NCBI GenBank assembly: GCA_020160975.1
Contig: JAIUPJ010000001.1
Coordinates: 390,001 to 422,000 of the forward strand
Origin: Candidatus Saccharimonadota bacterium
GTDB taxonomy: Bacteria > Patescibacteriota > Saccharimonadia > Saccharimonadales > Saccharimonadaceae
Length of the DNA: 32,000 bases
Reading direction: 5' to 3'
Below are positions 12,688 through 32,000 of the stretch, piece after piece. Positions within the stretch are counted from its first letter, which is position 1; every line of letters starts with the position of its first letter. Made by a program: the position numbers and the translations under genes. The notes beneath the pieces are model-generated. The model had not been told where the DNA came from. It did not search any database and saw only the letters and a list, made by a program, of their open reading frames with translations.

Positions 12688-14808
12688 CTACTGCTGCTCA
12701 ATACCCTTCATCGTAAGGGAGAGGCGACCTTTTTCGTCGATGCCAGCAAGCTTGACGGTGACCATTTGGCCTTCTTTTAGCACATCGGTCACATTTTCAA
12801 CGCGCTGTTCGCTGATTTGGCTGATATGAAGCATGCCGTCGGTGCCTGGCATGATGTTGACGAAAGCACCAAAGTCCTTGATCGTGACGACTTTTCCGGT
12901 GTAGAGCTTGCCGACTTCTGGCTCCTCGGTAAGACCGCGAATCCATTCGAGAGCTTTCTCGATGCTCGCGGTGTCGTTTGAAGCAACGGTGATAAGTCCG
13001 TCATCCTTGATATCGATCATCGCACCAGTTTCACCGGTAATCTTGTTGATCGTCTCCCCGCCCTTGCCGATCACTGCACCGATTTTCTCAGGATTAATCT
13101 TGATCTTCTCGATACGCGGCGCGTAGGGACTAAGCTTCTCACGAGGTGCCGCAATAGTTGCGACCATGTGGTCGAGAATGTGCTTGCGACCGGGGCCAGA
13201 CTGCTTGATTGCATCCGCGAGAACAGAGACAGGCAGGCCGTGGACTTTCATGTCCATCTGCACCGCTGTAATACCATTTGCGGTACCCGTCACCTTGAAG
13301 TCCATGTCACCCGCAAAGTCTTCAGCATCGGCGATGTCGCTCAGCACGTAGTGCTTGTCGCCGTCAACCATCAGACCCATTGCGATACCAGATACCGGAG
13401 CCTTCAGTGGCACACCGGCATCCATCAGGGCTAATGTCGAGCTACAGGTCGCTGCCATACTCGTTGAACCGTTTTGGCTCATGATTTCAGTCACGCTACG
13501 GATGGCATACGGAAATTCTTCTTCGGTCGGCAGCACTGGAATGAGTGCGCGTTCTGCAAGATAACCGTGGCCGATTTCACGACGGCCTGGGCTACCAAGG
13601 CGGCGCACTTCACCTACCGTGTAGCCAGGTGCATTGTAGTGATGCATGTAGCGGCGCTCGCCGTCGGTGACTTCCATTGTATCTACAATCTGTGCAAAAC
13701 TGAGTGGTGCCAGCGTAACGATGTTCATGCCTTGTGTGACACCACGAGTAAAGAGGCTGGAGCCGTGGGTACGTGGCAGCAGGCCGACTTCGCTACTGAG
13801 CTCACGAATTTCATCCAGCTTGCGGCCGTCGGGGCGTACGCCGTCTTCGACTATGCCGCGGCGGACATCTTTGTGAAGCGCCATCGTGAATGCTTCATCG
13901 TATTCATCTTTCAATGCAGGATATTCTTCGACGCCAATCTTTTCAGTCATCGCTTCGTGGAATGTCCAGCGAAGTTCGTTGACCATCTCGTTGCGCTCTG
14001 GGTAGGCTTTGCGCAGTTTGTCGCCCAGCTTGCCTTTCACCCATTCATCAACTGCTTTTTGGATATCTTCATTTGGCAAAACTAGTTCATATTCTTGCGC
14101 TACTGGCGCCACCTTTGTGGCAAGCTCTCGCTGCAGTGAAATCGCCGGCTGGAAGGCTTTGAATGCCCAATCCATTGCGGCTACTAGATCGTCTTCAGAA
14201 ACTTCATTGGCACCCGCCTCTACCATCGTGATACCACTCTCGATGCCGGCCACCACAAGGTCAAGATCACTAGCCTCACGCTCCTCAGCGTTCAAAAATG
14301 CTTTGAATTCACCCTTGACCCGACCAACACGAAGTCCCGCCACTGGGCCGTCAAATGGCGTACCCGTAAGCATCAGCGCACTGCTGGCGGCGATCATTGC
14401 GACCATATCAGGGCGGAAATTTGGATCCATCGATAGCACGCTTGAAACCACCTGCACCTCTTGGCGATAGCCCTTCGGGAACAGTGGTCGAATCGGGCGA
14501 TCTATCAAACGACCGATTAAAATCGCTTCGTCGCTCGGACGACCTTCGCGCTTGATGAAGCGGCTGCCGCTGATCTTGCCCGCTGCATACATTTTTTCTT
14601 CGTAGTCGATCGACAGTGGGAAATAGTCGAGTACGACCGGTCGAGAGCCGACCATCGCCGTACCGAGCACCACGGTGTCGCCATAGGTAACGAGCACGCT
14701 CGCAGTAGTGCGAAAGCCAACACGGTTGACCTCAAGTGTCAATGGTTTGCCACAAAAATCAGTGGTAACAGAAATAATATCCTTGCCACTAGGGTTAATA
14801 ATACTCAT
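12688..14808 (-). CDS. pnp: polyribonucleotide nucleotidyltransferase (PNPase)
   Basis: It has two RNase PH domains plus KH (IGAVIGKGGETINKI) and S1 (GKLYTGKVVTIKDFGAFVNI) domains. I prefer the ATG at 14808 (MSIINPSGK) because a perfect AGGAGG (14817-14822) lies 8 nt upstream. The track's start at 14844 has no Shine-Dalgarno sequence. Confidence 0.95.
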   Translation of the reverse strand: MSIINPSGKDIISVTTDFCGKPLTLEVNRVGFRTTASVLVTYGDTVVLGTAMVGSRPVVLDYFPLSIDYEEKMYAAGKISGSRFIKREGRPSDEAILIGRLIDRPIRPLFPKGYRQEVQVVSSVLSMDPNFRPDMVAMIAASSALMLTGTPFDGPVAGLRVGRVKGEFKAFLNAEEREASDLDLVVAGIESGITMVEAGANEVSEDDLVAAMDWAFKAFQPAISLQRELATKVAPVAQEYELVLPNEDIQKAVDEWVKGKLGDKLRKAYPERNEMVNELRWTFHEAMTEKIGVEEYPALKDEYDEAFTMALHKDVRRGIVEDGVRPDGRKLDEIRELSSEVGLLPRTHGSSLFTRGVTQGMNIVTLAPLSFAQIVDTMEVTDGERRYMHHYNAPGYTVGEVRRLGSPGRREIGHGYLAERALIPVLPTEEEFPYAIRSVTEIMSQNGSTSMAATCSSTLALMDAGVPLKAPVSGIAMGLMVDGDKHYVLSDIADAEDFAGDMDFKVTGTANGITAVQMDMKVHGLPVSVLADAIKQSGPGRKHILDHMVATIAAPREKLSPYAPRIEKIKINPEKIGAVIGKGGETINKITGETGAMIDIKDDGLITVASNDTASIEKALEWIRGLTEEPEVGKLYTGKVVTIKDFGAFVNIMPGTDGMLHISQISEQRVENVTDVLKEGQMVTVKLAGIDEKGRLSLTMKGIEQQ

Positions 14809-18350: not shown

Positions 18351-20267
18351 ATGAGTACTACTTATGGTATAATAGTGGCAAATACTACTCAAAAAAATAA
18401 AAATATGCTTCACCACTACCACCTTCGCTATGTGATCTCCCACCTCCTAAAAAATAGGCGCTTGGCGCTGATCATGAGCAGTGTCATCATACTGTCGGCA
18501 GTTGTGACCTATCTCGTGCTCCGGACGAGCCTCCCGCTGACTCTTCGCTATGATGCAACCGACGTCAAGGTAGACGGCCCTCTTGCCATCACCCTCAATC
18601 AGCTCACGCACCCTATTGCGACAGATAAGGTACAGGTCGCTCCTGCGGTCAAGGGGACGTGGCAATACATTCAGCCCGATGTCACCAAAAACCCAAAGCT
18701 TGTGTTCACACCAGCGACCTACCTCAAAGAACACACCACCTACACGGTCACCATCCCTAATACAAAACGAGTATTTGGTGTCGAGCTAGAGGTGCCGAAG
18801 GTCTCATTTACCACCGAACGCGCGCCATCGCTCAAGAGTTCTGGCGCTGCAAGCTGGAAAGATGGACAAGTGGTTGCAGCCGATGAAACGGTACGAGTCG
18901 ACCTCGTCTCACCAAACCGTCACTTGCGTAAGCTAGAGCTGCGCACGACACCAGAGCTAGAAACAGTAAGCTCTGTACAGCGGGACCAGAGCTACTCCTG
19001 GAGCCCAAAGAATGGCGTCTGGCCACAAAACACCGATGTGACCATAGAGCTCTATGACACAAAAAATGAGCAGTCTTTGCTTAAAAAAACCATTCATATC
19101 GCTGCCGAGCCAGCGCTTACCTCTCCGCTTGCCCAAGGCAATATAGACGAGCGCGAGAGCATCAGCCTCACTTTCGACCAACCCATCGACCATCAGACTG
19201 CTCGTATCGCATTTGAGTTACCCGGTAAAGGCACCTGGAAAGATGGTACAACCTACGTATTTACCCCTGATAAACTGGAGCCGAACAAGAGCTATCCCTA
19301 TACTGTCGCAAAAGCGATGCGCAGTCGTGACGGCGGTATTCTGCAGCATGATATCGCAGGCTCCATCTCTACCGTCGGACCAATTACGGTTGTGGGCACC
19401 TCACCTCGTGGTGACGGTCTTGCCCAGGCAAGCCAAACGCTGTCTTTTACCTTTAGTCGTCCGGTAGATCATGTATCGGCCGAGCAGCGCTTATCGGTGT
19501 CTGCAGGGCAAGTGACGGGCATGTCATGGCGAGGAAATACACTCTACGCAACTGTAGCAAACCTCGGGTATCAACAGACCATAAGCGCCGCAATCGCTGC
19601 TGGCGTGAAGAATACAACATTTGGAGTACCGAGCACTCGCAGTTTCTCGCTCAGCTTTACCACAGAAGTGCGCAGCGCTCGATTGGACATTCCATTCTTT
19701 CGACAGCAACACGCTGCGACATGCACTGCAGCAAGCCTCCGCATGGCACTTGCCTACCGTGGCGTCGGTGCCGATGAAATAGGACTCGTTAACGCTATGG
19801 GCTACAATCCGCGGAGCATCGACAAAAGCACCGACCCTCCCGTCTGGGACGACCCTCAAACGATGTTTGTTGGGTCAATCGATGGGTCTATCACTGGCGG
19901 GACCGGTGCAGGACCAGATGCTCCTCCTGTAGCAAAAGCAGCGCGTGCCTACGGCCGCAACGCAAGTGCGGTCACAGGAGTAGACGCCGGGTGGATTGCT
20001 CAACAGCTCTATAACGGCAATCCTGTGATCATGTTTGGCGCCTTCAGCCGAACGGGTACTATCACCTGGAAAACACCAAGCGGAGACACACGTATCATGA
20101 ACCTCACAGGCCATGCCACTACTGTCACGGGAGTGAAAGGTGAACCATCTAACCCGATTGGATTCTGGGTAAATGACCCTCTCCGTGGTATATCATACTG
20201 GACGACAGCTCAGGTCAACGCAAACATTGCGCTCGACCCGGACAGACAAGCGGTTGTCATCTACTAG
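18351..20267 (+). CDS. membrane-anchored protein with tandem Ig-like (SbsA/Big-type) domains and C-terminal peptidase C39-like (YvpB-type) domain
   Basis: 638-aa ORF with a TM segment (LALIMSSVIILSAVVTYLVL). It carries four repeats of the type xxLxFxxPxxH (LAITLNQLTHP, ISLTFDQPIDH, LSFTFSRPVDH). The C-terminal LDIPFFRQQHAATCTAASLRMAL...LTGHATTVTGV supplies a Cys/His pair. An extended -10 TGgTATAAT at 18365-18373 lies inside the first codons, so the ATG at 18405 may be the real start. Confidence 0.7.
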   Translation: MSTTYGIIVANTTQKNKNMLHHYHLRYVISHLLKNRRLALIMSSVIILSAVVTYLVLRTSLPLTLRYDATDVKVDGPLAITLNQLTHPIATDKVQVAPAVKGTWQYIQPDVTKNPKLVFTPATYLKEHTTYTVTIPNTKRVFGVELEVPKVSFTTERAPSLKSSGAASWKDGQVVAADETVRVDLVSPNRHLRKLELRTTPELETVSSVQRDQSYSWSPKNGVWPQNTDVTIELYDTKNEQSLLKKTIHIAAEPALTSPLAQGNIDERESISLTFDQPIDHQTARIAFELPGKGTWKDGTTYVFTPDKLEPNKSYPYTVAKAMRSRDGGILQHDIAGSISTVGPITVVGTSPRGDGLAQASQTLSFTFSRPVDHVSAEQRLSVSAGQVTGMSWRGNTLYATVANLGYQQTISAAIAAGVKNTTFGVPSTRSFSLSFTTEVRSARLDIPFFRQQHAATCTAASLRMALAYRGVGADEIGLVNAMGYNPRSIDKSTDPPVWDDPQTMFVGSIDGSITGGTGAGPDAPPVAKAARAYGRNASAVTGVDAGWIAQQLYNGNPVIMFGAFSRTGTITWKTPSGDTRIMNLTGHATTVTGVKGEPSNPIGFWVNDPLRGISYWTTAQVNANIALDPDRQAVVIY

Positions 20268-22398: not shown

Positions 22399-24210
22399 TT
22401 ACTGGCCTGGGATACGGAATTGAGACGGGTCTGTTGGACTCGATGCAGAAACTGGACGAAGATCAGGAGAACCGACAGGCGCGGGAGCGGTAGCCACTGG
22501 CGCACCAAATGGTGGTAATGTTGGCGCGGCGACATCACCTGGAAGCGGTGGCAGGGTAGAAAAGTCTGGCAACGGTGGTAGTGGTGGCAAGAGCGGATCG
22601 GCCGCGGCTGGTGCAGGAGAAGTTGGCAAAGTGCTCTGCGGACTCTGTAGGCTTTGTGGGCTTGGCGCACCAGTCAGTGCGGCGTCGACTGCAGCCATCG
22701 CATTCTCCTGATGTGCGCGATTCTGAGCGTCAATCTCGGCAAGCGTTGGTATTGCTGCTACTGGTGTAGGCGGTTGGATCGGTGCAACGTGTGTTGTCGT
22801 GCCGGCATTGCTTGCCGCCCCTAATACATCGACAACAGTCGGTTCTTCGACCGCGCTGTCATTGATTGCATTGATGGGCGCCTGAAATGCAGGCTCGTCG
22901 GCTACAAAGCTGCTGCCGCCATGCGTCAAAATGGTTTTATTGCGATCCTCATTGATCTCACGCTGCTTGTCGACCGCTGCTTGTTCACTGGTTGCATTGA
23001 GCGTCCCCCCGAGTGTTGGCTCGACAGACTGATTATCTGATGTGCGCCACGTATCCGTCGTCACAGCGCCACGAAGCGGTGCTGGTTGCACTGGCTGCGG
23101 TGCGACTGCCGCAAGATTGTCAGCAAGTTCTTTTTCGGCGACAACAGTCGCTTCCCTCTGTCTCTTTGCGACAACACGAGCCGCCTGCTTTTTGAGCTCT
23201 TCTTCAGCCCGCGTGACTGCTTCAGCTGATTGGTCAGAGGCAATTTCGTCACGCACTTCATCGAGAGTGCCCTCGGGTACATGCGAAATCGCTAATGACC
23301 CGTCTGCAGCTGGCGTATCTTTTGGTGCCTCTTTTGGCGCTTCCTTTGGTGTAGCTTCCTTGGCGGGATGCTCGCTGCGATCAACTTTTGCGGGTTTGTC
23401 CTCTTGCAGATCGCCTTCTGATTTTTCTTGCTCTTTCTCTTTTGCAGGCAAGGCGCTGCCTTCTTCGAGCTTGATAGCAATCAGCTGCTGGTTTGCCCCT
23501 GCAGCCATTAGTTGTGCGGCGGTGGTCATGACGTCAGCAGATGTCTTGTCATTGCTGAATCGCTCTGTGGCGGCAACAATACCCGTCAAAAGAGCGGTAG
23601 CAATTTGCTCGTCAAGAAGCGCTTTGTCAGATTTAAGTGCTTCCGCAAGCCCTGCCATCATCTCTGAATAGCTACTTGCTGCTGTATCAACCCATTCTAT
23701 GCCGCCCAGGTTACTGGCTTCACCAAGCGACACCGCTGCCACCGTCGCATCATGAAGAATGCGCCCATGACTCTCAAGAGCCTTGTCGAGATCTTCACTA
23801 CTCCTAACGCCGATGGCTAGTACGAACTCGACATTATAGTCACCTTGGCTAAAATCGAGATCCTTATCAGAAATTGTCGTTCGATACGGTGTGATAAAAA
23901 TCTTCACCATATCATCGACAACTTTGTAGCGCAAATGGTCGGCTTTTTCTTTGTCGAGTGCAATGATGAAATCTCGCAGACTATCGACCGTATTCTCAAA
24001 CGTTTTTTCAGGCTGGAGAAACTCGATGGCAGGGGGAACTGCACCGCTGAAAACTGCTGTACCATGCTTGTTGAGCTTGTTGATGAGCAAGGTGATACCA
24101 AGCGCCGCGCTCAACTCATCGACAGATGGGTTACTGTTCACGGTCACAAGAATATTGTTGCTGTCTTTGATCTTTTCGACAATCTGTTTTTTGACGGTGG
24201 TATCTGCCAT
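22399..24210 (-). CDS. DHH-fold (NrnA-like) protein with degenerate catalytic motifs and long Pro/Ala/Glu-rich disordered C-terminus
   Basis: 603-aa ORF. The N-terminal ~250 aa follow the NrnA DHH layout (ILVTVNSNPSVDELSAALGITLLINKLNKHG; VDTAASSYSEMMAGL; ATALLTGIVAATERFSN). The DGD and DHH metal motifs are replaced (SVD, LHD), and no DHHA1 domain is present. The C-terminus contains KEAPKEAPK and LPPLPPLP. Confidence 0.6.
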   Translation of the reverse strand: MADTTVKKQIVEKIKDSNNILVTVNSNPSVDELSAALGITLLINKLNKHGTAVFSGAVPPAIEFLQPEKTFENTVDSLRDFIIALDKEKADHLRYKVVDDMVKIFITPYRTTISDKDLDFSQGDYNVEFVLAIGVRSSEDLDKALESHGRILHDATVAAVSLGEASNLGGIEWVDTAASSYSEMMAGLAEALKSDKALLDEQIATALLTGIVAATERFSNDKTSADVMTTAAQLMAAGANQQLIAIKLEEGSALPAKEKEQEKSEGDLQEDKPAKVDRSEHPAKEATPKEAPKEAPKDTPAADGSLAISHVPEGTLDEVRDEIASDQSAEAVTRAEEELKKQAARVVAKRQREATVVAEKELADNLAAVAPQPVQPAPLRGAVTTDTWRTSDNQSVEPTLGGTLNATSEQAAVDKQREINEDRNKTILTHGGSSFVADEPAFQAPINAINDSAVEEPTVVDVLGAASNAGTTTHVAPIQPPTPVAAIPTLAEIDAQNRAHQENAMAAVDAALTGAPSPQSLQSPQSTLPTSPAPAAADPLLPPLPPLPDFSTLPPLPGDVAAPTLPPFGAPVATAPAPVGSPDLRPVSASSPTDPSQFRIPGQ

Positions 24211-25919: not shown

Positions 25920-26891
25920 CTATTGTGGCATAGGCTGACAGACGGAACAAACATGAGTACCACGACCAGCGACTTTGATCTTCTCGACAATCACATCGGG
26001 ATGTCTCGGACATGGCAAGCCTTCTTTGCGAAAGACACGCGCGAAGTCGATGTAACTCCCCCGCTTGCCCTCGGCGTTGACATAGTTTCGGTCGGTACTG
26101 CCGCCTTTTTCGATGCTGAGATTCATGACGTATTTAATTTCCTTCAACAATTCGACTAGTTGCTCATCAGATACATCTCGTACGCGGGTCGCAGGGTGGA
26201 TCCGCGCGCCCCACAAGCTTTCATCGGCATAGATATTTCCTACTCCGGCCAGCACAGTTTGGTCGAGAATTGCCGCTTTGATGGTAGTGTTATTGCGACG
26301 ACGAGTTCGGGGGATAAATTCGCTACCTGTAAATGAATCTTCAAGCGGCTCTGGGCCTACGCGTTGCATAAAATCGATACTCGGCACTTCAACAGTCGGG
26401 AAAAGTTTTAACCACCCAAATTTGCGCTGGTCATTAAAATACAGATGCGAGCCATCGGTAAACTCAATCACCACGCGCGTGCTCCTGTCGGGCAATTCAC
26501 CCACCAGTGAATCATTTGGATGCCCCGCACCAAAGCGGACCTCACCCATGACATCACCGGTGCTTCGCACGCGCTTTAGGAGGCGGGGCGACGAACCTGA
26601 ATTCGCTTCAGAATCGGGCGGAGAGGTAGACCCCTCCTTTACATATACGAGCTGCCCAGTCATTTTGAGGTGAATGACAAGTGTGTAGTGTGTTGAAAGA
26701 TCAATCAAAAGTACCTTTGCTCTTCGACGAATATCGACAACACATGAACCGATCAAAAACTCTCGAACCGACTGCGGCTCGTTAGGAAAACTCTTAGGAG
26801 AGTCGCGCACCGAAGTATCTCGCACAACTTTGTGCATGATAAGTGACGCAAGACCGCGCCTAACTGTTTCGACTTCAGGAAGTTCGGGCAT
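25920..26891 (-). CDS. mutM: formamidopyrimidine-DNA glycosylase (Fpg/Nei family)
   Basis: The N-terminus MPELPEVETVRRGL carries the catalytic Pro2/Glu3. It has an H2TH region and a C-terminal zinc finger CPRH...CSVCQ. TATACT (26898-26903) lies 6 nt upstream of the ATG. Confidence 0.9.
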   Translation of the reverse strand: MPELPEVETVRRGLASLIMHKVVRDTSVRDSPKSFPNEPQSVREFLIGSCVVDIRRRAKVLLIDLSTHYTLVIHLKMTGQLVYVKEGSTSPPDSEANSGSSPRLLKRVRSTGDVMGEVRFGAGHPNDSLVGELPDRSTRVVIEFTDGSHLYFNDQRKFGWLKLFPTVEVPSIDFMQRVGPEPLEDSFTGSEFIPRTRRRNNTTIKAAILDQTVLAGVGNIYADESLWGARIHPATRVRDVSDEQLVELLKEIKYVMNLSIEKGGSTDRNYVNAEGKRGSYIDFARVFRKEGLPCPRHPDVIVEKIKVAGRGTHVCSVCQPMPQ

Positions 26892-26908
26892 ACATCTAGT
26901 ATAGCGCT

Positions 26909-27703
26909 CTAGGCGACGAGCGAGTAATCGCCGCTTTGCATGATGTCCACCGCCATATCGGCGACGTCCTCTGCTCGGTACATAATAGCGTTGTGGCCGC
27001 TCAGCACGCGAGAGTCTAGCTCATACAGGTTGAATCCAGCATAGGTTAGCCCCCGCCGAACCTTATCTGGAGAAATGAGACGATCATGCGGAAAAAGCAG
27101 CGCGTCGCGTCTGATATGCTCATCAAGACCACGCGCCTGTTCGGCAACGTAGTGCCGGCTCGCCATGAATGCCGTCTGCAATAAAACATGCGGTGGACTG
27201 GAGACGAAATAATCAAACCCATCGGCCACCACTCGAAGCTCGTCGAGCATATGCTTATTGTCAGGCCGGTCACGCAAGCTCGACAAGGCGCGAAAGGTAT
27301 TCACGCCACCATAGCCAGCTGGCTGCATGAGGAGAAGACCTGATATATCATCAGGTGCTCTCAGCGCCGCCATTGTCGCGTGCATACCGCCGAGTGAATG
27401 GCCGATGACCCGAACGGGCTTTTGTCCATCATCGGCAAGCGATTTGACGACCTCGATCACTTCATCGGTACAGACTGGCGATGCACCTTCGTGCGCCATA
27501 GTGACAGACGTCACTCCCCTTTCGGCGACATCTCGAGCAAACGGATTGTAGAGTCGGCGCTTCGCCATAATGCCTGGAACGATGAGAGCGACTTCGTCAC
27601 TCGTCACTTCCTCTGGTGTACGTACAGTATAATGCACCACTCGTGAGCCAAGCTCGAGCGTATGATCACGGGTCTCGTACCGCAACCGTTCCAGGCTTTT
27701 CAT
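26909..27703 (-). CDS. alpha/beta hydrolase
   Basis: 264-aa ORF with the nucleophile elbow GHSLGG. The substrate is unknown. Confidence 0.75.
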   Translation of the reverse strand: MKSLERLRYETRDHTLELGSRVVHYTVRTPEEVTSDEVALIVPGIMAKRRLYNPFARDVAERGVTSVTMAHEGASPVCTDEVIEVVKSLADDGQKPVRVIGHSLGGMHATMAALRAPDDISGLLLMQPAGYGGVNTFRALSSLRDRPDNKHMLDELRVVADGFDYFVSSPPHVLLQTAFMASRHYVAEQARGLDEHIRRDALLFPHDRLISPDKVRRGLTYAGFNLYELDSRVLSGHNAIMYRAEDVADMAVDIMQSGDYSLVA

Positions 27704-27767
27704 GACATTACTATGCTCTTAGGGTGCCGAAAAAGCAATAGCCTGAACGCACTATCTCACGCTAGAA

Positions 27768-28229
27768 TTACTGCTTAGTAAGCTGCTCATTAATAACACT
27801 TGTCACCTTGCTATCTTCACGAAGGTTTTGCCAATAAAGAACTTGGGATGATTTCAGAGCGATGCTATCCTGCGGGCCATAGAGCTGATCGGTTGCCTTA
27901 ATAAGTGTAGTCTTCGGTGCATCTTTACTCGTGTCGTTTGCCGTGTTTACTTGTAGGATTTTCTCAATATACGGTGATTTTAGCTGCAAAAACTCACCAC
28001 TGACATTTTGCAACTTGCCAAAGTATAGCTGTCCATTCGTCATATAGACCACTTGGTAACTGTTACGGTCTATGCGCTGTGTTGGATTGAGAATAGTCAT
28101 AGTTACCGCAAACCCAAGCGCCAATAGTCCAATAAATACAGCCGTCAAGAAAAGTTTCGTATAGCGATGTGTCGGCCAAAACATGCTTCGGTGTTTCTTG
28201 CGTGTCGTAATCTCTGAGCTTTTGTTCAT
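27768..28229 (-). CDS. hypothetical bitopic membrane protein
   Basis: 153-aa ORF with a basic N-terminus, one TM segment (LFLTAVFIGLLALGFAVTMTIL) and an exodomain containing YQVVYMTNGQLYFGKL. TATACT (28239-28244) lies 9 nt upstream of the ATG. Confidence 0.7.
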   Translation of the reverse strand: MNKSSEITTRKKHRSMFWPTHRYTKLFLTAVFIGLLALGFAVTMTILNPTQRIDRNSYQVVYMTNGQLYFGKLQNVSGEFLQLKSPYIEKILQVNTANDTSKDAPKTTLIKATDQLYGPQDSIALKSSQVLYWQNLREDSKVTSVINEQLTKQ

Positions 28230-28244
28230 ATATTCTTCAGTATA

Positions 28245-28619
28245 TCACTCGTTATTGGTCTGATTTGGTGTATCGATGACTGCAGGACCGACATCAACAA
28301 TGCGGTCAATCTCGGGACGATAGATGATTACCTTTTGAAGATTTTTGTATATCAAAATCTTATCGCCATTTTTTACTTTGCCGCGGAGATACCCGCTCGC
28401 GACTTTGCTACTATCGACGACTGTTATGAGCGCGGGCTCTTCATCGCTCGGCAATACGTAGTGCCTACTAATAGCCTCTTTCACTTGAGAAAGCGACGAC
28501 AAATCGCTCTCACGGCTCATTTGCGACCGAGTGTAGGCTCCTGCACCACTCACGAGCATAACTAGTAGCACGACGAGAGCAGATAGTATTTTTTGTTTTT
28601 TTGTCAATCGACTCATCAA
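28245..28619 (-). CDS. hypothetical bitopic membrane protein
   Basis: 124-aa ORF with one TM segment (ILSALVVLLVMLVSGAGAY). Its ATG overlaps the stop of the upstream 682-aa gene in ATGA (28616-28619), which suggests translational coupling. Confidence 0.7.
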   Translation of the reverse strand: MMSRLTKKQKILSALVVLLVMLVSGAGAYTRSQMSRESDLSSLSQVKEAISRHYVLPSDEEPALITVVDSSKVASGYLRGKVKNGDKILIYKNLQKVIIYRPEIDRIVDVGPAVIDTPNQTNNE

Positions 28620-30664
28620 TAGTCACTTTCTACGTAGACACGATTAACGTTTATCTGTACGGCAGCTGCGGTGCCACCGTTATTCATATACTGGTGATGC
28701 GTCAGTAGTGCAGTGCTCGAAGGCATGTCAGTTGATATAGTACCGCTAGTAGAGGCGCCCGTGTCGAGTCGTTGCACACGATACCCAATACTGCTCCCGT
28801 TCGCCGCAGCGTACAGTATGAGCTCATAGACGGCATCTATGTTGTTCGTGGGGAAATTTGCACCGAGATCAATCTTTGTAGCAGTACCCGCAGCGTCGTT
28901 ATGCATAATCTGCAGATTAGCGTCGGCGCTGTCCCAACCAACACCGAGCATATTAACTATAGCTGATGGGTTGATTGATGTAGACGTCGCGCCCGTGGTC
29001 GCAGTTAACCCGCTAAAGAGCCTCTGGTTGGCAGTCGTTGTCGAAGTGCTAAAGCGTGAAGCATAAAAGAATCCGCCCAAGCCTGCCGCATTACCTCGCC
29101 ATACCAGCGGTGCGGTAGAGCGTAATTCTGCGGCAGCGTTTGCTGTCGTCGCACTAGACACCCTAACCCGGCGCATCGAATTAGCCAGGTTAGTAGTAGT
29201 AATCGCCGGTGTCGAAGCTGTTCCCACTGTCGTGTTCGGCATGCCAAGTGTGTTTATCGTGGTACCGGTACTTGGCAGTAGTATTGCAATATTATTTGCA
29301 AACAATGCTGGCTGGTACGGGGTATCCAAGCCTGAGGGCCCAACAGATTTAAGTATCATTCTTCCGGCAATCTCTTTGGCGTAGATTTTCATACTACCAG
29401 CAGTGGGTACAGAGGGTTCATCTGTAACAGCAGCCATCTGAAGGCTGCCCGAAGCAATGTCAACGCCTATGTCAAAACCGCCAGCCACCTTCAGCCCTAT
29501 CTCCGTACCTGCGCCTGGCGTCGTTGGTCCCTCTATTTTGATGCCATACGCAGAAACGCCGCTCGCTGGACCAGTTGCATCGGCAACGATTCTCAGCCCC
29601 GACCACTCGCTCAGTGCGGTCGTACCTGGCACGAAGTCAACACGCATTCCAGCGCCCTCAATATCCCCTGCGCCACCAGCGTATTTGACATCGATACCAT
29701 TGACGTTATCAGCTGTTACAGCCTGTCCTGTATTGTCGACCGTAAAAAGACTCGACGTCGGCGCAGCACCGGCGGCGACTCGCACACCCTTGGCAGCAGT
29801 TGTCGTGATGGTTGCTGGGCTTGTCGAGCTGTCATATGCCTGCTGAAGCGTGCTACCCCCGCCGCTACCTATACAATCTGTCCAAGCGCCAGCCTGATAG
29901 CAGCGGAATTTGTTGTTGGTGGAGTTATAGTACATGGCGCCATTCGTTGATGTCGCACCCGCTCCAGGGTCACTGGCGTTGCTATCCATGACAAGCACCT
30001 GAGCAGCTGCATCAGCTGCACCGATTTTGACGACAGCATTTGTCGTATCCACAGTAAATAGCGATGAACTATTGCCGACCGTGAAAGCAGCCGTGCTGTT
30101 GGTCGTGACACCAAGCGTGCCAGTAAACACCGAGTTCGATCCGAGCTGTGCAAACGCCCCACTATCAAGTCCATCCAACGTATCAGAGTTAAATGCATAG
30201 GACGAGCTGCCAAGCTTGTTGCGGGGAGACATGGGGCCTTCAGAGTAGGCTTCGCAGGCGGCAGTTGTACAGGTGGCAGTCGCGGGGGTTGGGAGTTCTA
30301 TCTCAAAGTAGAGAGCATTGGCATTGTTGAAGAGAGTTGGCGAAAGACTAGAGACATCACCCAGCTGGACACTAAAGAGCCCGCCCGTGGTAACGGTCAC
30401 GCCAGTAGTTGCAGAGTTTGCTCGTTGCTCGCTCCAGAGGAGTGTGCCAGCGCTCGCAGCATCGTAGAGACGGAACTTCATATTGTAGGTGCCAGGAGCC
30501 ATTGGGTTGCCTGAGACATCGTTAATACGACCTTGAAAGTTAAGTTTGTAGGGAATGGATTGGAGGGCAGAGGAGGGAGTGCCATGCACAAACAACACTA
30601 AGCCAGCACACAAGGCTGGTAGCGCAAAAAACATCAGTCGTCGATTTCGCACGCCGTTGGTCAC
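28616..30664 (-). CDS. secreted tail-fibre-like surface protein
   Basis: 682-aa ORF with a GTG start and the signal peptide MTNGVRNRRLMFFALPALCAGLVLFVHG. The N-terminal module IPYKLNFQGRINDVSGNPMAPGTYNMKFRLYDAASAGTLLWSE...GLFSVQLG is typical of tail-fibre and surface-fibre proteins. It is Thr/Ser/Ala/Gly-rich and beta-rich throughout, with two Cys pairs. Confidence 0.7.
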   Translation of the reverse strand: MTNGVRNRRLMFFALPALCAGLVLFVHGTPSSALQSIPYKLNFQGRINDVSGNPMAPGTYNMKFRLYDAASAGTLLWSEQRANSATTGVTVTTGGLFSVQLGDVSSLSPTLFNNANALYFEIELPTPATATCTTAACEAYSEGPMSPRNKLGSSSYAFNSDTLDGLDSGAFAQLGSNSVFTGTLGVTTNSTAAFTVGNSSSLFTVDTTNAVVKIGAADAAAQVLVMDSNASDPGAGATSTNGAMYYNSTNNKFRCYQAGAWTDCIGSGGGSTLQQAYDSSTSPATITTTAAKGVRVAAGAAPTSSLFTVDNTGQAVTADNVNGIDVKYAGGAGDIEGAGMRVDFVPGTTALSEWSGLRIVADATGPASGVSAYGIKIEGPTTPGAGTEIGLKVAGGFDIGVDIASGSLQMAAVTDEPSVPTAGSMKIYAKEIAGRMILKSVGPSGLDTPYQPALFANNIAILLPSTGTTINTLGMPNTTVGTASTPAITTTNLANSMRRVRVSSATTANAAAELRSTAPLVWRGNAAGLGGFFYASRFSTSTTTANQRLFSGLTATTGATSTSINPSAIVNMLGVGWDSADANLQIMHNDAAGTATKIDLGANFPTNNIDAVYELILYAAANGSSIGYRVQRLDTGASTSGTISTDMPSSTALLTHHQYMNNGGTAAAVQINVNRVYVESDY

Positions 30665-30728
30665 TTGCCCCTTTCCGATATACTACTCACTCCACACCAT
30701 CGTCAATGTATAGTGTGGCTCAATTGTA

Positions 30729-30757
30729 ACTATACCGCTTATGTCATCACTTTTCAA
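30729..30757 (-). promoter_or_regulatory. internal promoter TTGAAA-N17-TATAGT ahead of the 682-aa gene
   Basis: The -35 element TTGAAA is at 30757-30752 and overlaps the stop of the upstream gene. It is followed by a 17-nt spacer and the -10 element TATAGT at 30734-30729. Confidence 0.45.
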
Positions 30758-31611
30758 CGGGCAGTGGCGCGCTGACGGCGCAATCTACGCACGAGCACTC
30801 CGCCCGCACCAACGGCAACTGTTGCAGTAATCGGTAACAACCAGCGCCAATAGCCTGTGATGGCAAAAAAATATGTCGACTTCTCCCCTGTTTCGGCGTG
30901 GGCAGTTAATTTAATTACCCCTAGGTAATCTCCCTGTTGACGATAGTCAACACTTCGCGCTCGGCCTGCAAACACCAAAGGACCTTCGATTGTCTTTGTC
31001 GTATACGGCCAAACATTAACAACAATCTGCGGGTAATACCCCGTTGACTGCCTTGGATCGGCCATATTTTTGACCACAAACGAAGCAGTGAGTGCGTCAC
31101 CAATCTGAAATGGCGATGCGGCCAGCGAAGCAATGGTAGCTTTGCGGTCTGTTGAGGCGCCATTTACTATCGATAGAAGCGTCCCAACCCTTACTGATGA
31201 CTGCGCGCCCTCAACCTGCTGGGGCTGAGTAGAAGCAAAAATTGCCGCAAATACCTCACCTGACGGCAACTTACTGCTATCAATCGAAAAGGCGAGATGC
31301 AGGGTTTCGCGTGGACCTAATTCCGCTTCAGTATAATCAAGCATCACACCTTTACTGACTTGTTCATCATCAAAAAATTCGAGATTCCCTTCGTCGTCTA
31401 TTTGTCGAAACGCCTGCACCGTAAGCTTCAGCTTAACCGCGCTACCGCTAGGATTTGCAATATCAACAAAGCCTTTTTTACTCTCACGTTTTACTAACGT
31501 TGCATTGTAGTGAAGTGGTGTGATACGCAAAGAATCAGCAAAGGCACTGTGTCCCGGCAAAAGACCGCCAGCAATCATCCCAAGCACCGCCATCAGCCAC
31601 CACACTCTCAC
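30754..31611 (-). CDS. secreted two-domain beta protein with C-terminal membrane anchor (DUF916/DUF3324-like, chaperone-like)
   Basis: 285-aa ORF with a GTG start and a signal peptide ending SAFA/D. It has two beta-rich halves (LRITPLHYNATL...VKLKLTVQAF; VRVGTLLSIVNG...) and a C-terminal TM segment plus basic stop-transfer (WRWLLPITATVAVGAGGVLVRRLRRQRATAR). Confidence 0.6.
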   Translation of the reverse strand: MRVWWLMAVLGMIAGGLLPGHSAFADSLRITPLHYNATLVKRESKKGFVDIANPSGSAVKLKLTVQAFRQIDDEGNLEFFDDEQVSKGVMLDYTEAELGPRETLHLAFSIDSSKLPSGEVFAAIFASTQPQQVEGAQSSVRVGTLLSIVNGASTDRKATIASLAASPFQIGDALTASFVVKNMADPRQSTGYYPQIVVNVWPYTTKTIEGPLVFAGRARSVDYRQQGDYLGVIKLTAHAETGEKSTYFFAITGYWRWLLPITATVAVGAGGVLVRRLRRQRATAR

Positions 31612-32000
31612 GGCAGCATCGTCCCTGTCACGGTCACAATATTGGTATATATACCCGCTGCTTGCGTACTGGTCACATCAAGCTTGAGCTTTAGCCCAAG
31701 CACATCCTTCACGCCAACCCCAGTTCGCGAGTACACCGTTGTTGCCGTACCTGGCAAGGCAGCGTAGGCGTTTCCCGCACTCCATTTTCCGTCGATCGCC
31801 GTTGCGTTCGTGCTAGCCAGACTGAACCCAAGACCTTTTGTAGTGCCTTCGCTCCATGTCGTAGGGCTTGCAACGGTTGAAGAAATTGCAGGGATTGTGT
31901 TTGGGCCACTGGTAAGATTTTGATTTTGCTGGATTGCCACGCTGTAGTTCGAAGCATCTGTACGAACAATGGCATCAAACGAAACCGCCTGTGACGAACC
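31608..32000 (-). CDS. partial (5'-truncated by window edge) secreted WxL-like protein
   Basis: The frame is open from the window edge (...GSSQAVSFDAIVRTDASNYSVAIQQNQNLTSG...). It ends ...DVTSTQAAGIYTNIVTVTGTMLP. Its stop codon overlaps the downstream GTG start in GTGA (31608-31611). Confidence 0.6.
   Translation of the reverse strand, partial: GSSQAVSFDAIVRTDASNYSVAIQQNQNLTSGPNTIPAISSTVASPTTWSEGTTKGLGFSLASTNATAIDGKWSAGNAYAALPGTATTVYSRTGVGVKDVLGLKLKLDVTSTQAAGIYTNIVTVTGTMLP

Follow-up and report, generated by a model that had tools for sequence, protein, structure and literature searches.

In our study, a stretch of 32,000 nucleotides (nt) from Candidatus Saccharimonadota bacterium (assembly GCA_020160975.1, contig JAIUPJ010000001.1, positions 390,001 to 422,000; hereafter the window) was found to contain, on its minus strand, a gene encoding a fibre protein of 682 amino acids (aa). 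We propose that this protein is a Sec-exported cell-surface fibre of the mosaic adhesive trimer (MAT) kind, a probably trimeric adhesin that recognises the host and whose specificity is exchangeable, and we give this reading a probability of about 0.6. It draws on the architecture of the protein, its homologies, its chromosomal context, its gene linkages and its mosaicism among strains, all of which were observed. An earlier reading of the letters of the DNA (the first-pass annotation) had described a tail-fibre-like exoprotein with a distinct C-terminal beta domain, and this description was supported by the homology, the predicted fold, the variability and the apparent export signals. The parts of the gene are as follows.

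28616..30664, minus strand: fibre gene, 682 aa plus stop codon, GTG start.
30668..30676, minus strand: Shine-Dalgarno-like GGAAAGGGG, 3 nt 5' of the fibre GTG, read from the sequence.
30566..30664, minus strand: Sec-type signal peptide (aa 1-33), predicted cleavage after SSA, read from the sequence.
30137..30565, minus strand: MAT-type N domain (aa 34-176), beta-rich, presumed cell-proximal, with a match to the model NF053851 and a predicted local distance difference test score (pLDDT) of 82-91 in the AlphaFold2 monomer.
29810..30136, minus strand: stalk (aa 177-285), with the knob motif GAMYYNSTNNKFRCYQAGAWTDC and C255-C264, of low confidence in the monomer model.
29444..29809, minus strand: conserved linker at aa ~270-320, which serves as the recombination junction, followed by the repeat shaft at aa ~323-405.
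28619..29443, minus strand: head (aa 408-682), a predicted concanavalin A (ConA)-like jelly roll homologous to phage tail-fibre tips.
30729..30757, minus strand: sigma-70-like promoter candidate TTGAAA-17-TATAGT, 10/12 matches, overlapping the stop codon of the pamD-like gene upstream.

The open reading frame (ORF) was present exactly as quoted by the first-pass annotation, including its GTG start. The identical fibre protein was found on 11 metagenomic contigs, the longest of 477 kb, and 98 full-length orthologs showed 38-84% identity to it. At least 398 relatives were found among the GTDB species genomes, and nearly all of the best 80 were labelled Candidatus Saccharibacteria, Saccharimonadia or Patescibacteria. 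The fibre gene was surrounded by the housekeeping genes for PNPase, RNase J, FtsK, TruB and Fpg, with the gene of ribosomal protein S15 nearby, and the synteny of the locus was kept in orthologs down to 42-43% identity. The fibre gene is a chromosomal gene of a bacterium of the candidate phyla radiation (CPR), class Saccharimonadia, and not a prophage gene. Neither a paralog of the fibre, nor an internal repeat at BLAST level, nor a template/variable repeat of the kind found in diversity-generating retroelements was found within the window. The promoter assigned to the gene by the first-pass annotation exists as a site; a scan of 3.4 kb found three promoter-like sites in the region against 3.9 expected by chance, so that the site, and with it an independent promoter, is no more than a candidate.

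The N domain connected the fibre to the MAT proteins of Bdellovibrio. The region of aa 30-171 matched NF053851 (Bdello_MAT_N) with an E-value of 2.4e-6 over profile positions 7-157 of 162, and this was the only NCBIfam model matched by the fibre protein. All 29 diverse relatives also matched NF053851 alone, the best with an E-value of 4.8e-11 over profile positions 12-158 of 162. An exhaustive profile search with the N domain retrieved 58,925 cluster representatives; among the 150 best, the module was placed in nearly every case at residues ~30-180 of its host proteins, which ranged from 169 to 2205 aa. The first-pass annotation had taken this module to be common to phage tail fibres and bacterial surface fibres. 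The phage half of that claim did not stand, and a phage origin of the N terminus was rejected, as neither tblastn against 50,697 phage genomes nor a search of PHROGs gave a match to the module. Pfam and PDB sequence searches with the full fibre protein returned nothing. By profile comparison, the N module is cellular and distantly homologous to the N domain of the Bdellovibrio MATs.

An invariant beta-rich domain of ~130 aa has been described directly after the signal peptide in all 21 Bdellovibrio MATs and is presumed to lie on the surface of the predator (Caulton et al., 2024, PMC10769870). The fibre resembled a non-S74 Bdellovibrio MAT in its order of parts, a signal peptide followed directly by a beta-rich N domain of ~130-140 aa, a long fibre and an exchangeable C-terminal tip, and both Bdellovibrio and the carrier of the fibre depend for their living on attachment to other bacteria. 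In both families there were paralogs with S74, beta-helix and beta-sandwich tips. Unlike Bdellovibrio, the carrier is a monoderm CPR bacterium without an outer membrane, and its gene has a dedicated membrane-anchored partner and stands beside a pilus operon. The tips described for MATs are TNF-like, C-type lectin, novel beta-sandwich and S74 domains, and the taxa listed as MAT-bearing do not include any CPR member (PMC10769870); the ConA-like head of the present fibre is not among these tips. Judged by its sequence, the fibre shows the testable features of a MAT, with the exception of the Bdellovibrio-tuned score cut-off, and would work like a non-S74 MAT.

The head was the part homologous to phage proteins. 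The separate C-terminal beta domain of the first-pass annotation was recovered as a beta-sandwich predicted by AlphaFold2 with a pLDDT of about 90 over aa ~426-682; its start at aa 453 was not upheld, the homology to phage proteins beginning at aa ~395-408. The Foldseek search that the annotation had suggested for this domain gave 228 PDB matches at E<=0.001, headed by legume lectins (E ~3e-8), and all of the first 24 places were taken by lectins or lectin-like inhibitors. The head shared the jelly roll of legume lectins such as the peanut lectin 2pel (Foldseek probability 1.0, target-normalised template-modelling score 0.5-0.67), from which it differed by a sequence identity of only about 10% and by its place at the end of a fibre. 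In sequence, aa 408-682 matched phrog_13925 with an E-value of 8.6e-69, and the viral structure matches, at 25-41% identity and a root-mean-square deviation of ~2 Å, included 'Phage tail repeat like' and 'Major tropism determinant N-terminal domain-containing' proteins. Both the phrog_13925 match and the ConA/legume-lectin fold support the candidate receptor-binding head that had been proposed.

The head alone retrieved 1123 homologs, the best of which were proteins of ~335 aa composed of Mtd_N (PF18454) and a head, with 50-61% identity, and 23 residues were conserved in both the Saccharibacterial and the phage heads. One such Mtd_N protein (P0181, locus L087) followed baseplate-type genes and preceded a lysis module; the genes after it included those of a GH25 lysozyme and of an integrase. 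A second carrier of the head, of ~400 aa and without Mtd_N, lay among genes for giant proteins, an amidase and PTL_trimer; L085 and L087 were the two sampled loci with head carriers in phage-like contexts. Head homologs at 30-45% identity were also found in eight isolated or uncultured phages (nine records), including isolated phages of Rhodobacter, Microcystis, Pseudanabaena, Curvibacter and Flavobacterium. The C-terminal ~275-290 aa of the fibre are thus shared by homology with the phage Mtd_N-head proteins, which are short and possess no signal peptide, no MAT N domain and no g123-like neighbour. Unlike a phage tail fibre, the present fibre has neither Mtd_N nor another phage N domain and lies outside any phage structural module.

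The signal peptide claimed by the first-pass annotation was borne out by a basic n-region followed by LMFFALPALCAGLVLFV and then by ...SSA|LQ, with a helix predicted by AlphaFold2 at aa 14-26, and a comparable hydrophobic N terminus was present in 86 of the 98 orthologs. No transmembrane (TM)-like segment was found in the mature fibre protein. The motifs quoted earlier (IPYKLNFQGR... and both Cys loops) were all present, with ATCTTAAC at aa 130-137 and FRCYQAGAWTDC at aa 253-264. Across the 98 orthologs, C132 and C137 were both present in 33, both absent in 65 and single in none; for C255 and C264 the numbers were 88, 9 and 1. Each Cys pair was thus gained or lost together, which fits extracytoplasmic disulfides, and the signal peptide and the co-varying pairs indicate that the fibre is probably exported. 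A lipoprotein was rejected, as P-A-L precedes Cys19 and is not a lipobox. A sortase or other C-terminal anchor was also rejected, the protein ending in ...YVESDY and its mature part containing no hydrophobic segment.

The second Cys loop, which had been called recurrent in such fibres, proved to be so: a loosened regular expression on its YYN...R...W..C core matched 71 of 144 N-module proteins. A weak match to phrog_8309 covered aa 224-330. The linker was the segment of lowest entropy across the full-length orthologs (1.12), and the shaft contained five or six repeats of the form G-hydrophobic-(K/R/D)-(V/I) at a spacing of 16-18 aa.

The diversification expected of a receptor-binding head by the first-pass annotation was found. 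Entropy across the full-length orthologs was 1.81 in the head, the most variable mature segment, and 1.12-1.54 elsewhere, and the head was swapped wholesale between near-identical strains, as two sister strains showed. In the fibre of locus L083 (P0007), aa 36-285 were 99-100% identical to the window copy whereas aa 408-682 were only 40-48% identical, and the flanks of the locus were 98-100% identical in DNA. DNA similarity was lost at codons ~320-350 and returned ~3 kb later inside fpg, so that the replacement covered, together with the head, the two small genes downstream of it and an alpha/beta-hydrolase gene. The converse pattern, the same head on a divergent N half, was found in P0002; in locus L084 the N half showed 58-69% DNA identity, and the head and downstream genes 97-100%. 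The breakpoints in L083 and L084 mapped to aa ~270-350. The head of the window was 60% identical to phage-type heads and 40% identical to the allele of the sister strain, and in a rough neighbour-joining tree without support values the Saccharibacterial heads formed four clades interleaved with phage-type clades.

Beyond allelic exchange, some relatives with the N module carried LVIVD propellers or beta-helices inserted before the head, and in others the head was replaced by SO2946-like_C or beta-helix ends. The C-terminal parts of the 66 top N-module proteins contained beta-helices in 14 cases, Peptidase_S74 in 4, Kelch in 3, LVIVD in 2 and SO2946-like_C in 2. Such varied C-terminal parts on a shared N module mirror the S74 and non-S74 classes of MATs (PMC10769870). 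Some side observations concern the exchanged segment. The part replaced in L083 corresponds to positions ~26540-29620 of the window (minus strand); besides the alpha/beta-hydrolase gene at 26909-27703 it takes in the 3' part of fpg, whose product measures 323 aa in the window, 27 residues more than the 296 aa in L083. L083 also has, at 12965-13261, a truncated ORF of 98 aa without counterpart in the window, flanked by the small membrane-protein genes on one side and the alpha/beta-hydrolase gene on the other. This ORF encodes a signal peptide and, of a second MAT-type N module, the first ~65 residues, and it resembles a remnant of recombination between fibre paralogs.

Beyond what the first-pass annotation had described, the fibre gene is part of a larger surface-structure locus, with a Pam-type operon upstream and a head-specific partner downstream. 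The neighbouring genes are as follows.

28245..28616, minus strand: head-linked partner gene g123, 123 aa, with an N-terminal TM helix and a conserved ectodomain of ~75 aa.
27768..28229, minus strand: second small membrane-protein gene g153, 153 aa, a frequent neighbour that is not head-specific.
30754..31611, minus strand: PamC/PamD-like gene g285, the immediate upstream neighbour, with a signal peptide and a C-terminal TM helix.
31608..32000, minus strand: 3' part of g462, a secreted protein of 462 aa with Laminin_G_3 and a pilin-like C terminus, which runs off the window.

The stop codon of the fibre gene and the start codon of g123 overlapped as TGATG, and the 123-aa product has a predicted N-terminal TM helix, so the translational coupling to a small membrane protein noted earlier is plausible. 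Linkage was counted across about 80 Saccharibacterial loci. A homolog of g123 stood directly after the head module in 32 of 33 copies, 31 of 33 g123 homologs stood directly after a head, and a g123 homolog was nearby in only 2 of the 35 N-module genes with other C-terminal ends. The identity of g123 tracked the identity of the head (rho 0.62, p 0.001) and not that of the N module. Its ectodomain is small, conserved and of the alpha/beta type; no family was found in Pfam, NCBIfam or PHROG, a word-indexed search gave eight homologs, and no g123-like gene was found beside the phage heads. Phage tail fibres are known with downstream chaperone genes, such as T4 gp37 with gp38 and gp57A, and Tfa in Mu and P2. 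As in these pairs, the small downstream gene is co-inherited and exchanged with the tip as a cassette. Unlike the phage chaperones, g123 has a TM anchor and shows no similarity to them in sequence or fold, and the analogy is purely positional. In L083, the second small gene, g153, likewise had a divergent allele in its place. Its product has an N-terminal TM segment and a conserved ectodomain with the pattern YFGKL...Y.P......I....V.FWQNL, belongs to no known family and is conserved widely across Saccharibacteria, where its gene lies close to that of the fibre or to fpg.

Upstream of the fibre gene, on the same strand, a cluster of five genes was observed (window 30754-32000 and beyond; 5301-9911 of L001). 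It encodes a pilin-like protein of ~205 aa, two paralogous proteins of ~290-310 aa, an Ig-like (immunoglobulin-like) membrane protein of 273 aa and the Laminin_G_3 protein of 462 aa. Upstream of g285 lay the LamG protein, the paralogous protein of ~300 aa and the secreted protein of ~205 aa. The g462 product matched Laminin_G_3 with an E-value of 3.7e-18, and the LamG family matched the TafC fimbrial model below its cut-off. Both g308 and g285 encode products that have a signal peptide together with a TM helix at the C terminus; this is the architecture described for PamC/D, after which g285 is called PamC/D-like here (Troman et al., 2026, doi 10.64898/2026.03.03.709456). In the g205 family of 11 members, CPR_Pam_pilin_C was matched by eight and PamT by one, all below the cut-offs. 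From these profile matches and architectures, the cluster would seem to be the operon of a Pam-type CPR pilus. A Firmicutes WxL/DUF916 locus was considered and rejected, as no such Pfam match was found and the Pam assignment fits better; single-sequence PDB searches with g308 and g205 returned nothing. For 43 of the 83 N-module genes, the distance to the end of a g285 homolog upstream was below 500 nt.

In one ortholog locus at 38% identity, from a more distant Saccharibacterial lineage (L005, 4731-7955), the fibre gene was not preceded by a pam-like cluster; three tandem genes of ~342-345 aa and one of 350 aa, none with a Pfam family, stood upstream, which suggests an alternative set of upstream partners. 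Two other genes of the window may be mentioned. Positions 18351-20267 (plus strand) encode a protein of 638 aa with Big_5 Ig-like and Peptidase_C39_2 domains, which may be exported or located at the surface. Positions 22399-24210 (minus strand) contain a conserved ORF of 603 aa, syntenic in distant relatives and without a Pfam family, whose sole match, weak and partial, was to a phosphoesterase model of the NrnA type (E 3e-6, far short of the cut-off).

The Pam pilus of Ca. Mycosynbacter amalyticus has been described as built from donor-strand-exchange pilins with PapD-like chaperones that bear C-terminal TM helices (doi 10.64898/2026.03.03.709456). In the same preprint, a 'tail fibre-like protein' was found to accompany pam operons consistently in CPR lineages; it appears there as a node in a neighbourhood network, without further analysis, and the supplement does not mention the fibre. 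In Saccharimonadia the gene of the present fibre likewise follows immediately on Pam-type pilin and chaperone genes, and by locus position and description the fibre is very probably the 'tail fibre-like protein' of Troman et al. For that protein, the preprint contains no domain analysis, no link to MATs or phage heads, no partner gene and no mosaicism among strains.

Put together, these observations suggest the following course of action. The signal peptide would be cleaved, and the conserved N domain would stay proximal, at the surface of the cell (or of the pilus), by analogy with the Bdellovibrio MATs. The stalk, stapled by disulfides, and the repeat shaft, probably as a trimer, would project the ConA-like head distally, where it would most likely bind a surface glycan or another envelope epitope of the bacterium that carries the epibiont. 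The partner g123, co-inherited and plausibly co-translated with the head, probably helps the head to fold, assemble or dock outside the membrane, in a role likened to that of the chaperones of phage tail fibres. At the conserved linker, the N half would recombine independently of the half that contains the head and its partner, so that strains could change their specificity while the base is left unchanged. The gene would be expressed from or beside the Pam-type pilus operon, and the fibre and the pilus probably act jointly in host contact. In this scheme we infer the trimeric state, the orientation, the ligand, the role of g123 and the physical link to the pilus. Indirect hints of a trimer are that phages carry this head joined to Mtd_N and that S74 trimer-chaperone domains occur in 4 of the 66 paralogs.

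Several observations weigh against the proposal. The full fibre protein scored 27.4 bits, and the domain 31.4 bits, against NF053851, for which the curated NCBIfam cut-off is 60 bits, and all 29 relatives were likewise below it; the model is a Bdellovibrio 'subfamily_domain', so that distant members are expected to score short. The AlphaFold2 model was calculated for a monomer, beside which the trimer is a suggestion, and it was poor at aa 155-280 and gave no regular secondary structure at aa 280-420. The phage homologs of the head are all annotated as 'hypothetical', so that their own presumed receptor-binding role follows from where their genes lie and from the domains that accompany the head. 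The window copy of g123 showed only ~43% identity to its homologs at two loci with heads 72% identical, and the AlphaFold2 model of g123 found no fold match in the PDB (best E 0.43). The ConA-like fold also includes enzymes, the PL7 alginate lyase 8wok being among the matches at an E-value of 3e-7. Finally, the Southlakia transposon-sequencing paper names other adhesin candidates, none with the architecture of the fibre.

Among the other explanations, we regard it as unlikely that the fibre is an accessory or the tip of the Pam pilus, mounted on a donor-strand-exchange pilus as its specificity module. Such an arrangement would account for the PamC/D-like gene within 500 nt of those 43 N-module genes, for the conserved order of pilin, chaperone, LamG-pilin, chaperone and fibre, for the matches of pilin models to the upstream genes and for the central place of the tail fibre-like gene in pam neighbourhoods (doi 10.64898/2026.03.03.709456). 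However, the fibre itself matched MAT_N only and no Pam pilin or PamT model in NCBIfam, the published pam model works without a fibre and has PamT as its proposed tip (doi 10.64898/2026.03.03.709456), and the remaining 40 of the 83 N-module genes stood elsewhere without a pamD-like neighbour. The N domain is, moreover, akin to Bdellovibrio MATs, which were described without a Pam-type pilus (PMC10769870), and this argues against a Pam-dependent anchor. Quite unlikely, in our view, is a head that acts as an enzyme, for example a glycan lyase or glucanase, which would make the fibre a tailspike-like surface depolymerase acting on host or matrix polysaccharide. The alginate lyase among the fold matches would suit this, as would the pectate-lyase-type beta-helices, typical of depolymerases, in 14 of the 66 N-module paralogs. 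The top 24 fold matches of the head were nevertheless the lectins and lectin-like inhibitors already mentioned, an ExDxxE-type motif was not found in it, and its 23 conserved residues, dominated by Gly, Pro, Arg and Tyr and with only four that are acidic (D447, E679, D681) or amide (Q451, with N457 set aside), look structural more than catalytic.

The fibre might also be oriented the other way, with the head as the proximal anchor, docked either on g123 or on the wall glycan of its own cell, and the N domain distal. The obligate pairing of the head with a TM-anchored protein speaks for this, and phages with related heads, if they infect Saccharibacteria, would bind the Saccharibacterial surface. 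We consider this reversal very unlikely, since a conserved N domain with a diversified and swapped C terminus is the anchor-and-tip pattern of MATs, and the head lies C-terminal to the fibre-attachment domain in the phage Mtd_N-head proteins. The closest heads lie in phage-like loci of 34% and 67% GC as against 50.5% here, a mismatch that argues against phages of the fibre's own organism. A prophage or tailocin tail-fibre gene lying in the window by chance is highly improbable, and is the sole rival effectively excluded. It has in its favour the homology of the head to a phage protein family; it was rejected on genomic context and conserved synteny, there being no phage genes nearby, housekeeping genes on the flanks and the same order down to orthologs of 42-43% identity. 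The absence of the N module from the phage genomes and PHROGs searched and the presence of a Sec signal peptide, which virion fibres do not carry, point the same way.

Returning to the surface adhesin that we propose, a further idea, possible though doubtful, is that Saccharibacteria and the phages of their hosts share a pool of receptor-binding heads and use the same host receptor, and that cassettes of head and partner pass between phage and epibiont genomes and so retarget host range. Hints of such a pool are the closer similarity of the head of the window to phage-type heads than to the sister-strain allele, the interleaving of clades in the rough neighbour-joining tree, the GC content of L087 (66.6%, with a 53%-identical head), and the GH25 endolysin of L087, which resembled most, at ~30% identity, endolysins of phages of Gram-positive bacteria and for which 27 of the 62 matching phage records were Arthrobacter phages. 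The other phage-like locus, L085, has 33.9% GC. These features may hint that phages of actinobacterial hosts share the head family. As to the host of the head-carrying phages, the baseplate-type protein gave no match and the integrase was uninformative, and the amidase matched Tenacibaculum and jumbo phages weakly.

How epibionts of the CPR/Patescibacteria recognise specific hosts is acknowledged as an open question in a passage of the literature (PMC11623550). Type IV pili and, recently, Pam pili have so far been implicated in the host contact of CPR bacteria, without a specificity determinant. In the literature searched, nothing linked Saccharibacteria or Patescibacteria to MAT or tail-fibre-like adhesins, except one line in the Pam preprint. 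The fibre differs from the known MATs in the phylum and its envelope type, in a head that is borrowed from or shared with phage tail-fibre tips of the Mtd_N type, in the obligate membrane-anchored partner and in the place at the end of a Pam operon. The fibre family is a concrete candidate for host specificity, as it combines a conserved base with a lectin-like tip akin to phage receptor-binding proteins and exchanges that tip as a cassette. The idea is testable in cultivated pairs such as Mycosynbacter/Gordonia, Southlakia/Actinomyces and TM7x/Schaalia, and the typing of heads in metagenomes could help to predict the host range of uncultured CPR bacteria. With this family, the MAT principle would be extended to an unrelated, monoderm and ultrasmall parasite, which suggests a general solution for latching onto bacteria.

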